Of a stretch of 64,000 nucleotides of DNA, positions 12,960-56,665 are shown piece after piece (the stretch's first letter is position 1; each line of letters begins with the position of its first letter). This DNA is from a virus. Lineage: Duplodnaviria > Caudoviricetes. The stretch spans positions 143,752 through 207,751 of IMG/VR virus record IMGVR_UViG_3300033068_001989. One strand, given 5' to 3'. The notes beneath the pieces were generated by a model. That model searched no databases. It was not told the DNA's origin and saw nothing but the letters and a program-made list of their open reading frames with translations. The position numbers and the translations under genes are program-made.

Positions 12960-13400
12960 CTATATTTTGTATTTCTCTATAAAATCACTACAAACACCGG
13001 AACATCCATCTATTGGATCCTGATTAATTTCTGGCATTACAGCTATGCTATTCCTTATCGGTTGTTTCCCAGGATATGCCCAAATATGGTTATGACTTGT
13101 TAATGTTAACGTATCTTCTTCGTGCCAAAAATAATTTACATCATAACCACATTCTTTAAAAAACACTACGGCTTCAACGTTCTTACAGTGGACCCAAAGT
13201 TTAGATAACCTATCACGAATAAATCTAAAATCGATATCATAATCTGGTTTATCATGACCCAGCCACAACATATTGTCTTTAAACCAAACATCAATTTCAA
13301 CATCATATCCTTTTTTTATAGCTAAATCGATGTACGTTGGCTCATTCTCCCATGACTCAAATTTACCATTAATATTACCCCTATGTGCGATTAATATCAT
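12960..13400 (-). CDS. glycerophosphodiester phosphodiesterase-like protein
   Basis: LIAHRGN, DVEIDV, LGHD, HCKN, GVCSD. Confidence 0.75.
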   Translation of the reverse strand: MILIAHRGNINGKFESWENEPTYIDLAIKKGYDVEIDVWFKDNMLWLGHDKPDYDIDFRFIRDRLSKLWVHCKNVEAVVFFKECGYDVNYFWHEEDTLTLTSHNHIWAYPGKQPIRNSIAVMPEINQDPIDGCSGVCSDFIEKYKI

Positions 13401-34837: not shown

Positions 34838-34929
34838 TGGTACAGATGGCGGGAATCGAACCCGCGTTTGATGCTATCTCAACAACCGCTACGAGTATAG
34901 AAGATATAAGCTTCCATCGGTACATCTGC
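34838..34929 (-). ncRNA. tRNA-like RNA with a rearranged core
   Basis: Acceptor GCAGATG/CATCTGT+ACCA and canonical T arm, but no canonical D arm. Confidence 0.65.
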
Positions 34930-36291: not shown

Positions 36292-36439
36292 AAAAAAGGT
36301 CTCCTTTTTAGAGGAGACCTTTTTGATATTATTATATGTCTTAATATCAATACTCTCTCCTCATTACAATAGACGATTCACAAGTTGAACTCGTGTGATC
36401 TAAATGTAATGTATCTAATATGTACTGTATTTGTGACAT
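36292..36439 (-). promoter_or_regulatory. leader-peptide attenuator 1 (30-aa uORF 36347-36439, terminator 36292-36324)
   Basis: uORF MSQIQYILDTLHLDHTSSTCESSIVMRREY*; its GAGGAGA can pair with TCTCCTC in the terminator 5' arm. Confidence 0.65.
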
Positions 36440-36546
36440 GATTTTTATTTTTATAGATTTATATATCTAATTGATTTTAATATTTTATGCAAATTTAATG
36501 AAATGTTTCGAATAAAAAAAATTATTTTTTATTTTTTTTTCAATAT

Positions 36547-43692: not shown

Positions 43693-43713
43693 TTCGAAAT
43701 GTTTAAAAATTAG

Positions 43714-43803
43714 TGATCAGAACAGGAATCGAACCTGTGCTCTGCCGAAGATACCCCGATTTCTCGGATCGACGACCAAATACTCCCACTATATCATCTG
43801 ATC
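43714..43803 (-). ncRNA. tRNA-like RNA with an enlarged anticodon arm
   Basis: GATCAGA/TCTGATC acceptor, T arm ACAGGTTCGATTCCTGT, extra hairpin in place of the anticodon loop. Confidence 0.6.
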
Positions 43804-46331: not shown

Positions 46332-46405
46332 TGACCCCGATGGGACTCGAACCCATGACTCCCTCATTAAAAGTGAGGTGCTCTAGCCAGCTGAGCTACG
46401 AGGTC
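46332..46405 (-). tRNA. tRNA-Lys(TTT)
   Basis: Cloverleaf. Confidence 0.95.
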
Positions 46406-46579
46406 ATTATAATAAAGTTGTTTTTGTTTAATAAACCTGCCTGGTTTATTATGATTTTTCAACTTTAGTGTATTGATTTAGTTTCCGTTATGCCAAAGAT
46501 CATATTTTTTTAACATTGCAAATATATGAAATGCTTTCGAATTAAAAAAATATTTTTTTAATTATTTTTTTAATTTTTG

Positions 46580-46962: not shown

Positions 46963-46978
46963 TTTGTTTATTTATTTG

Positions 46979-47054
46979 TCGGGATACAGAGACTCGAACT
47001 CTGATGATGTCCTGCTCCCAAAGCAGGCGACTTAGCCAATTAGTCCACATCCCG
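46979..47054 (-). tRNA. tRNA-Pro(TGG)
   Basis: Cloverleaf. Confidence 0.92.
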
Positions 47055-47073
47055 TTAATTTTAATTTCAGTCC

Positions 47074-47271
47074 AAAAAAAAACTCCAGATCTTTTAAGAT
47101 CTGGAGTAAAAATATTTAATGCTTATTTGACTAGTTCTTACATTAAATTATATCGTGACCTCCAGATCCCTTGCTGTACCCATTATACCATTTGGCAATG
47201 CCCACCTGATTAAAGGGTGCAACGCTCTGCGGCATAAACGGTTTTACATTATTTCGGAAAGTTGTTTTCAT
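47074..47271 (-). promoter_or_regulatory. leader-peptide attenuator 2 (42-aa uORF 47143-47271, terminator 47074-47107)
   Basis: uORF MKTTFRNNVKPFMPQSVAPFNQVGIAKWYNGYSKGSGGHDII*; its GATCTGGAG is complementary to CTCCAGATC in the terminator 5' arm. Confidence 0.68.
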
Positions 47272-47369
47272 TGTTTTTTAAATTATAGATTTATATATCT
47301 AATTGATTTTAATATTTTATGCAAATTTATGGAAAAGTTTCGAATAAAAAAAATTATTTTTGATTTTTT

Positions 47370-47615
47370 TTAAATATTTTTAATTATTTCATCTAAACCA
47401 ATCTCTTTTACTGAGTCGAAATCGGAAGCATCATATGGTGTATCCTCCAGAATATAATATTTTTCCATGAAATATGGTCCTGATCCGTATCCTATTGCAA
47501 GTGCCTTCATTTCCTTTCCCCCGTATGCTACCAAAACAGTTCTTAGCGACGTGTTAGTATTTTTATTCATTACTTCCTCTAGCAAAGTAGAATTAAATTC
47601 CTGTATATGTTTCAT
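47370..47615 (-). CDS. hypothetical protein
   Basis: MKHIQEFN..LLEE N-terminus. Confidence 0.7.
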   Translation of the reverse strand: MKHIQEFNSTLLEEVMNKNTNTSLRTVLVAYGGKEMKALAIGYGSGPYFMEKYYILEDTPYDASDFDSVKEIGLDEIIKNI

Positions 47616-47624
47616 ATTTTTATT

Positions 47625-48317
47625 TTATTTTTTGCTCCATTCCTTCTTAGCATCCTTAGCTCCTGCTTTAGATACCCCACATTTGGTTGATTTAAAACTT
47701 GGTCCTTGTAAACCGTCTAATGGTTGATCTTCTCCTTTTGCTCTTTCCTCCTGCCATGCATAATACTCCTCAACAGATTTAAAACCAAGTCTTTTTGCTC
47801 TCTCCTCAACATCCTTTCTCATTTTTGCAACCTTGATCTCCTTTTTCATATTTGCATAATCCCTGGCTGATATTCTTTTATGTGATTCCAATTCCCCTTT
47901 GGTTACATTGGTCCCATTTTCTACTATTTTAATAGTAACCGTTGTTTGGTATCTACCATCTTCGAGCTTTAATGTTATTTCGTCGACAACTTCATATGAA
48001 ATATTGGATTCTGGTGGTACACATTGGCTGATATTTACTATTGCGTGTGATAGAGCTATCCTTTTTGATTGTGATTCGTCAGATGATATGCATACGCCTG
48101 TTCCTATGCTTTCCTCCTCGTCATCTCCAGCATTTTTATATTTTCCTGCTATCTCATTTTTAATGTTAGCACTTATGTCTGGTGATGCTAATAATGAAGC
48201 TATTATTGCAGTTGTGGCAAATCCTGATTTTGCTCTTGATATTAAGGAATTAAGATCCTCGTTTATTGGTTCGTCTTTTAAAGAATTAAATTCCTCGAAT
48301 AGTTGTAAATGTTTCAT
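47625..48317 (-). CDS. hypothetical protein, putative virion-internal
   Basis: MKHLQLFEEF N-terminus; GATATATA immediately upstream. Confidence 0.75.
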   Translation of the reverse strand: MKHLQLFEEFNSLKDEPINEDLNSLISRAKSGFATTAIIASLLASPDISANIKNEIAGKYKNAGDDEEESIGTGVCISSDESQSKRIALSHAIVNISQCVPPESNISYEVVDEITLKLEDGRYQTTVTIKIVENGTNVTKGELESHKRISARDYANMKKEIKVAKMRKDVEERAKRLGFKSVEEYYAWQEERAKGEDQPLDGLQGPSFKSTKCGVSKAGAKDAKKEWSKK

Positions 48318-48346: not shown

Positions 48347-48769
48347 TTATCTATTGGAATGGTTCCACTTGGCTCTTATGCAAGTCTGTGGTTTTCTTCT
48401 TTCCTTCAAATACATATTAATATATCCCATCATGTTACCAGATCCTATTGGATTAGCGCTATGTACGTAACATTGTGGGATCTCAAGATTATTTTCTCTT
48501 GCTAAATTAACTAACCATTTAACAACATCCATCCCAGTTTTTTCTGTTATAGAATCGTAGCATATGGTGTAATTGAACCTTGTATTTTTAAAGAAGTGAT
48601 CTATTGCGGAAGGACCAAGATCATGATCCAATGATATCAATTCGACGTTATTTAGACCTGTATTAAGGACTAATTTAACAAATTCATCATAATCTCTTAC
48701 CGTAACCCATTCTTTCCCTAGCGGGTGCTCTAATGGTGTTCTAGTGTCGTCTAGATAGATTGATATCAT
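48347..48769 (-). CDS. cyclic-phosphate-processing receiver-domain protein
   Basis: IYLDDTRTP, ISLDHDLG, TGMDVVKWL, VHSANPIG. Confidence 0.8.
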   Translation of the reverse strand: MISIYLDDTRTPLEHPLGKEWVTVRDYDEFVKLVLNTGLNNVELISLDHDLGPSAIDHFFKNTRFNYTICYDSITEKTGMDVVKWLVNLARENNLEIPQCYVHSANPIGSGNMMGYINMYLKERRKPQTCIRAKWNHSNR

Positions 48770-56598: not shown

Positions 56599-56665
56599 TA
56601 TTTAGATTTTATTTGTTTATATATCTAAATAATAACCAATAAAAAAAAAGAGCCAATTGGCTCTT

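Follow-up and report, generated by a model that had tools for sequence, protein, structure and literature searches.

Among the attenuators of enterobacterial operons, which also include trpL, hisL, leuL, and pheL, the leaders of ilvGMEDA and thr are multivalent, the former carrying regulatory codons for Ile, Val, and Leu and the latter for Thr and Ile. These two share with the phage locus described here a short leader, translated in the operons and presumably also in the phage, an intrinsic terminator ahead of the genes under control, an antiterminator that excludes the terminator and has its 5′ strand governed by ribosome position, and regulatory codons that match the regulated genes. The T-box riboswitch of Gram-positive synthetase and amino-acid genes recognizes uncharged tRNA directly by means of a specifier codon and the T-box sequence, with no need for translation, and resembles the phage locus in coupling the state of a specific tRNA to the choice between terminator and antiterminator ahead of translation-related genes. 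Two further systems are alike in part: in pyrBI of E. coli formation of the terminator hairpin depends on how far the leading ribosome trails the polymerase, and in TnaC and SpeFL the translation state of a short conserved leader peptide controls downstream transcription. Full-text literature searches returned no description of leader-peptide or attenuator control of phage tRNA genes or of tRNA operons; one paper examined (PMC3082878) deals with pheL only.

The window, by which we mean the whole 64-kb stretch analyzed here, is the final part of a 207,751-bp IMG/VR viral contig (34% G+C, estimated completeness 73%) and contains 34 tRNA genes, all on the minus strand. The module region is present in several sequencing runs, one of them a metatranscriptome. 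On that strand a promoter block, a leader open reading frame (ORF), an intrinsic terminator, and tRNA-Pro follow one another in this order. The tRNA-Pro(tgg) gene, located by tRNA gene search at 46978–47054 (−), is the first of array A, which runs from 47054 to 41769 (−) in the order Pro, Trp, Gln, Lys, Tyr, Asn, Phe, Asn, Gly, Gly, Met, Ala, Val, Arg, Ile, Gln, Lys. A second module, copy 1 (36293–36524, −), has a matching promoter block, a 30-codon leader at 36439–36347, and a terminator at 36324–36293, and lies 5′ of array B (−; Ser-Ser-Thr-Cys-His-Leu-Ser-Asp-Met-Glu). We observe the parts of an attenuator at this locus, their conservation, the alternative RNA pairings, and a match between leader codons and tRNA array, and we consider it probable that together they form a multivalent leader-peptide attenuator that gates the array, with slow decoding of the leader raising array transcription.

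The promoter block upstream of 47272 and the one at 36451–36524 are 96% identical over 74 nt, in agreement with the near-identity described in the earlier note, and they are the only full copies in the contig, one for the leader of array A (leader A) and one for copy 1. The block opens with a host-type promoter (47320–47358, −) made up of a T-run (47358–47345), a TTCGAAA box (47344–47338), and a −7 box, TAAATTTG (47329–47322), and continues with GATATATAA (47291–47299, −), the core of a candidate second, phage-type promoter, 28 nt 5′ of the ATG. In the window, 13 occurrences of the extended −7 motif compare with an expectation of 2. All clades of relatives (described below) keep a T-run, a TTCGAAA-like box, and a TAnnTTTG-like box 5′ of the leader, and GATATATAA is invariant in all 27 versions of the module, 27–31 nt from the ATG. 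The contig holds 23 copies of GATATATAA, 21 of them on the main coding strand (for example 47291–47299, 36459–36467, and 56617–56625, all −), and 15 precede an ATG-initiated ORF of at least 30 codons by 22–37 nt, several of these ORFs being large; the element is likely a phage-specific promoter or start-region element. An inverted repeat around GATATATAA was also considered as a conserved 5′-UTR hairpin; the idea was rejected, since 4 of 18 distinct versions lack the repeat, whereas none departs from the core or its spacing. We take the −7 box to be that of Bacteroidota sigma-A (TAnnTTTG), and our assignment of the host to Bacteroidota rests on this consensus together with A-rich start regions lacking a Shine-Dalgarno sequence. 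The dual promoter posited earlier remains plausible, as a Bacteroidota-type −7 box followed by the genome-recurrent GATATATAA, and to read the pair as a host-type promoter and then a phage-type promoter is reasonable.

Two different promoter-like elements in tandem, the second of which recurs before many phage genes, would also suit a temporal gate, in which the terminator stops host RNA polymerase coming from the early promoter and is later ignored by a phage polymerase or by an antitermination factor acting from GATATATAA, translation playing no part. We give this account little credence, since it explains neither the antiterminator strand within the ORF nor the codon roster, both set out below. 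Gating by an attenuator has a difficulty of its own in the same region: the host-type promoter motif is found a third time within array A, at 46541–46517 (−) between tRNA-Gln and tRNA-Lys, and this promoter-like site would provide the distal tRNAs with an attenuator-independent route, which counts against gating. The region 46400–46541 (−) contains no leader ORF or terminator, and an 8-bp hairpin without a T-run precedes tRNA-Lys.

The leader ORF of array A (47143–47271, −) comprises 42 codons and TAA, and is open throughout, as the earlier note had it. Relatives were collected by exact-pattern and peptide-pattern scans of viral and metagenome contigs and by a protein search, yielding 27 distinct nucleotide sequences of the module and 40 distinct peptides of 40–42 residues from at least five clades (50–95% peptide identity). 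The near relatives have complete phage genomes of 430 and 434 kb that carry terminal repeats, and more distant ones measure 343–373 kb. An intrinsic terminator lies 27–37 nt after the stop codon in the relatives and 36 nt after it in the window. In all 25 relatives with enough DNA a tRNA starts about 10–25 nt after the T-run (about 20 nt in the window, where tRNA-Pro(tgg) starts at 47054), so that it can be transcribed only through the terminator. In most clades the array opens with Phe and continues with Lys, Pro, Ala, Trp, and Gln; arrays that begin with Pro occur only in the clade of the window. The peptide family spans 40–45 aa, and 14 residues are invariant across all 40 distinct peptides, while third codon positions vary synonymously between clades. 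As far as sequence can tell, the leader is thus conserved as a coding sequence; its translation has not been observed. Neither leader peptide, that of array A or that of copy 1, matched a Pfam or PHROG family, and none of the peptide relatives found by the pattern scans and the protein search was seen in any other context.

Residue order, for example in the invariant QVGIAKWYNG, is more conserved than a match to the array would require. Codons 12–14 and 28–30 (47231–47237 and 47183–47189, −), which encode the two most conserved peptide motifs, are complementary at the RNA level over 7 bp in 13 of 13 representatives. This helix does not involve the antiterminator strand and shows no covariation, which cannot be assessed here because both strands are invariant; it might be a pause hairpin, or else the peptide might have a role of its own.

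Several observations on the surroundings of the module are recorded here. The cREC_REC domain has been linked to RNA repair. A gene at 48350–48769 (−), located in the tRNA region between a tRNA-Leu pair and the leader, encodes a 140-aa cREC_REC protein (cyclic-phosphate processing receiver, Pfam PF20274, E = 1e-22). In one relative (L018, 117 kb) the leader cassette directly follows the cREC gene, and the genes for the 230-aa and 81-aa proteins of the window (47370–48317) are missing; its module carries a G-to-A substitution in the −7 box and, in the terminator 5′ arm, an A-to-G substitution that keeps both helices through G·U pairing. When window positions 46978–48317 are compared with the 434-kb phage (L015/L016), the 230-aa protein shares 49% identity and the tRNA-Pro genes clearly differ, whereas the leader cassette is nearly identical from promoter to terminator; such uneven conservation points to strong constraint on the module or to module exchange. 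Two odd tRNA-like genes lie at 34841–34929 (−) and 43713–43803 (−); of this pair, one is found by Rfam only (32 bits, 89 nt) and the other is called by ARAGORN with a two-base anticodon.

The terminator (47074–47107, −) is a strong intrinsic one, with an 11-bp stem (47107–47097/47092–47082), a TAAA loop, and nine T residues. Across 24 distinct sequences its helix is paired in 100% of alignment cells and includes three covarying pairs, a result equaled by none of 500 shuffles. The complementarity between the ORF and this hairpin that drew attention to the locus proved exact: GATCTGGAG (47168–47160, codons 35–37) is identical to the terminator 3′ arm and a perfect complement of the 5′ arm, CTCCAGATC. 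With flanking bases the duplex between ORF strand and 5′ arm reaches 10–11 bp and −17.1 kcal/mol, and the putative 5′ strand of the antiterminator, GGGATCTGGAG (47160–47170, −), falls within codons 34–38. The second pairing, said to extend the first, is also present: ATTTAATG (47148–47141), which includes the stop codon, is complementary to CATTAAAT (47121–47114), and the two form a hairpin (47114–47148, −) that has the stop codon in its 5′ arm and is nested within the antiterminator. Read directly, the sequences of the relatives do not show this hairpin clearly conserved in every clade.

None of 2000 shuffles of the last 45 ORF nucleotides reached −17.1 kcal/mol (mean −5.7, s.d. 1.9). We also scanned the contig for terminator-like hairpins and took, for each, the best duplex of its 5′ arm with the 75 nt located 20–95 nt upstream. 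The window terminator ranked first of 39, the next value being −11.4 and the overall mean −5.3 (s.d. 3.1). The earlier note had named common complementarity of this kind at ordinary terminators as grounds for refutation. Such complementarity is uncommon at the contig's other terminators, and with the window terminator far ahead of the other 38 hairpins that refutation does not apply.

A partner for the terminator 5′ arm is present in the ORF tail of all 27 versions, 8–15 nt before the stop codon and at −6.8 to −17.6 kcal/mol, the search having been limited to the last 45 ORF nucleotides. Shuffle p was ≤0.01 in 8 of 10 representatives. Both exceptions fall in the clade with arm CTCCGATTCT, where bulges interrupt a weak helix (−6.8 to −9.5 kcal/mol) and where shuffle p was 0.25 for one of the four representatives tested and 0.01–0.04 for the other three. 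A natural variant (L074) has a C·A mismatch in the antiterminator helix. In nascent-RNA folds that stop at the terminator loop, i.e., before the 3′ arm exists, the minimum-free-energy structure pairs the 5′ arm with the ORF strand in 10 of 12 representatives if the complete leader is folded, and in all 12 if the ORF is cut down to its last 36 nt. In a MAFFT alignment, 81% of antiterminator cells pair, compared with 27–57% for slid partners. Covariation in the antiterminator is thin: a single pair changes on both sides (21–87; UA 7, CG 6, UG 5), its 5′-arm base covaries with the terminator 3′ arm as well, and the shuffle control was not significant because most columns never vary. Direct reading of the sequences shows the paired core in two codon phases, as TCT|GGA or TCC|GGA in one and as CCG|GAT or CCG|GAA in the other, and the peptide tails cannot be aligned between clades, yet the pairing of tail with terminator persists; the constraint therefore acts on the RNA and not on the amino acids.

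These results bear on whether the locus might be no more than an ordinary small phage protein gene with a strong promoter and a leaky terminator, allowing constitutive partial readthrough, its complementarity being non-regulatory. Small early phage genes with their own terminators are common, and the peptide is conserved with synonymous substitutions; in copy 1 the variable sites are all synonymous (4/4). We nevertheless regard this explanation as improbable: it would have to accommodate a complementarity between tail and terminator that occurs in all clades, in two codon phases, and uniquely among 39 terminators, the absence of any peptide relative seen in another context, and a reciprocal codon-to-array match, described below, that is very unlikely by chance.

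In the full-length window transcript the terminator conformer is favored by only 3.2 kcal/mol over a forced antiterminator conformer, a difference that fits a kinetic switch. When a 31-nt ribosome footprint is masked at codon 14 or 28, all 10 antiterminator pairs form in the predicted fold; moving the footprint to codon 32 or onto the stop codon leaves only 6 pairs, which close a loop of ~60 nt. In the clade of the window the antiterminator strand lies 15–25 nt before the stop codon, so that a ribosome parked at the stop would cover just its last 3–4 nt, at the 3′ end. Its presence in all 27 versions, the nascent-RNA folds, and its rank among the contig's terminators nonetheless mark the module as having a mutually exclusive antiterminator helix with its 5′ strand placed for ribosome masking, with covariation limited to one pair.

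The attenuator proposed in the earlier note is supported by the conserved layout of the 27 versions, by the universal pairing of ORF tail with terminator 5′ arm, and by the uncommonness of such pairing at other terminators. It would operate as follows, although translation of the leader, the direction of the switch, and the signal sensed are inferred, there being no transcript, translation, or experimental data. Transcription would start at the promoter block and enter the 42-codon leader, in which codons 5–32 form a roster of codons read by the tRNAs encoded downstream and codons 34–38 supply the RNA strand able to pair with the terminator 5′ arm. A ribosome delayed anywhere in the roster, or absent altogether, would leave the strand at 47170–47160 free as the 5′ arm emerges; the antiterminator helix would then form in place of the terminator, and polymerase would read on into tRNA-Pro and the rest of the array. 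With fast decoding, the ribosome would instead overrun the strand and sit at the stop codon, leaving the 5′ arm free to enter the terminator hairpin, and transcription would end. The predicted outcome is that tRNA supply feeds back negatively on tRNA gene transcription. The signal might be a shortage of host tRNAs for the AT-rich codons of the phage or a loss of host tRNAs during infection, which is speculation. Since no upstream element is seen to sequester the antiterminator strand, readthrough is the outcome predicted for an untranslated leader, in contrast to trp.

The case for tRNA supply as the signal rests on the codons of the leader. The earlier note had pointed to Pro, Trp, and Gln codons as a suggestive link to the first three tRNAs downstream. 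These are indeed the first three, but the suggestion was too narrow, as the leader samples all 15 distinct anticodons of array A (15/15). The conserved portion of the peptide is built solely from amino acids for which a tRNA is encoded downstream. Under standard wobble rules, with a sole U34 tRNA taken to read its whole four-codon box, 34 of the 42 codons of leader A are readable by array A, including 27 of the 28 in the roster (codons 5–32; 47176–47259, −); Thr3, Thr4, and Ser16 are unmatched. For copy 1, array B can read 22 of 30 codons of its leader (leader B), 17 of them consecutive, and 10 of its 11 anticodons are sampled. The match across arrays is poor (11/42 codons for leader A, 8/30 for leader B), and the reciprocal 2 × 2 table of leaders and arrays gives a Fisher p of 9e-6. 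Readable codons make up a background fraction of 0.54 (set A) or 0.40 (set B) in the 169 long ORFs of the phage. Among windows of these ORFs, none of 55,877 28-codon windows attained 27/28 for set A, and 16 of 57,736 attained 17/17 for set B; array A had all its anticodons covered in 14 of 17,892 such windows, and array B in 65 of 18,568. Each array tRNA is sampled by 1–4 scattered codons, without the single-codon runs seen in trp or his, and low sensitivity to a mild shortage is therefore to be expected. The regulatory codons would then correspond to the products of the regulated genes, as a roster rather than as runs. Two narrower proposals were set aside. One, a leader dedicated to sensing Pro, Trp, and Gln, fails because the first tRNA is Phe in most clades and the whole array is sampled; the other, that the number of Phe or Pro residues in the peptide tracks the identity of the first tRNA, was ruled out by reading the peptides.

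Replacements among the relatives follow the same set. At positions 5–31 of leader A, the 40 peptides contain 27 replacement residue types within the array-A set and 10 outside it, where single-base neighbors would give an expected within-set share of 52% (p = 0.007). The replacements tolerated are often radical for a protein (K/I/N, P/N, A/N, N/V), and the restriction to the array-A set lapses past position 32, where the antiterminator strand begins. This pattern is relevant to the possibility that the switch is real and senses not tRNA supply but the nascent peptide, through a TnaC- or SpeFL-like arrest near the stop codon that would respond to some ligand or factor and so choose between terminator and antiterminator. 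An arrest peptide would be in keeping with amino-acid-level selection, evident in the 14 residues invariant across 40 distinct peptides and in the synonymous changes, and with the position of the conserved block, which ends 9–14 residues before the C terminus and would be in the exit tunnel at the stop, a spacing that invites comparison with TnaC and SecM. An arrest peptide would leave unexplained, however, why each of the two unrelated leaders is composed of the amino acids that its own array serves and why radical replacements (K/I/N, P/N) are tolerated provided they stay within the set; copy 1, moreover, has a different peptide in the same architecture. We think it unlikely, and prefer a switch that senses the decoding of the roster.

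Copy 1 has the geometry claimed for it, with an antiterminator strand in the last codons of the leader, a hairpin over the stop codon, and then the terminator. Its peptide differs from that of leader A while the architecture is alike, and its stop codon is covered by a 9-bp hairpin analogous to ATTTAATG/CATTAAAT. The antiterminator duplex is weaker here (7 bp, −10.9 kcal/mol, shuffle p = 0.024), and in the contig-wide scan of terminators copy 1 ranked 6 of 39, at −8.4. A degenerate DNA pattern for the copy 1 leader turned up no clades beyond the two already known. One complete 373-kb phage carries both modules in diverged form, with a leader A that is 50% identical and a second leader, B′, of 33 codons. 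Its arrays can read 34 of 42 codons of leader A and 23 of 33 codons of leader B′, 19 of the latter consecutive, and the reciprocal table gives a Fisher p of 1e-6. The Leu codons of leader B′ include CTG besides TTA, and array B′ has a tRNA-Leu(tag) that is absent from the array of the window. Three Ile codons are unmatched in this phage, no tRNA-Ile(gat) having been found in its array. The diverged copy 1 module of the 373-kb phage (L106) is located at 13090–13375, with the 33-codon leader and the same terminator, and is directly followed by a Ser(tga)-like tRNA for which ARAGORN made no call.

In logic and parts the module is closest to the multivalent ilv and thr leaders, and it departs from them in several respects. 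It would regulate phage tRNA genes rather than biosynthetic enzymes. Its leader has no codon runs, offering instead 1–4 codons for each of about 11–13 amino acids (15 anticodons). The antiterminator strand lies within the ORF just before the stop codon, and no 1:2 anti-antiterminator hairpin is seen to sequester it; relative to trp, loss of translation is predicted to produce readthrough and not superattenuation. From the T-box riboswitch it differs in having a conserved ORF, whose translation is inferred, and in giving no T-box match even at E ≤ 1. The pyrBI system works in the opposite direction, in that a close ribosome prevents the terminator and allows readthrough, whereas in the phage module the arriving ribosome is predicted to favor termination. 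TnaC and SpeFL are Rho-based and sense Trp or ornithine in the exit tunnel; the phage module has an intrinsic terminator and an RNA antiterminator, and the composition of its peptide tracks the downstream tRNA set. At gathering score, Rfam found only tRNAs in the window and no Trp, His, Leu, Thr, or Phe leader or T-box. At E ≤ 1, the module region gave six matches below threshold, judged to be chance hits; no T-box and no leader of an amino-acid operon was among these, and the sole "leader" family was L10_leader, at 19.7 bits against a gathering score of 44.

The control of phage tRNA genes is essentially unknown, and it is debated whether the near-complete tRNA sets of large phages serve codon adaptation or replace host tRNAs that have been degraded or cleaved. 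A leader that lists the array downstream of it would show that expression of these genes is tied to actual decoding speed. Such an attenuator would extend classical attenuation from amino-acid supply to tRNA supply, and its leader would offer a compact, naturally occurring sensor that registers how available many tRNAs are simultaneously. It is quite possible, though we stop short of calling it probable, that giant phages more generally place a homeostatic "codon checklist" leader before each tRNA block, with one or a few codons per tRNA of the block for the ribosome to read and a delay at any codon switching that block on. Such a delay might reflect a host tRNA pool ill-suited to the AT-rich codons of the phage, or cleavage of the tRNA concerned by a host anticodon nuclease. 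If this is true, these phages would have direct product feedback on tRNA gene transcription together with a built-in sensor of tRNA-targeting defense.
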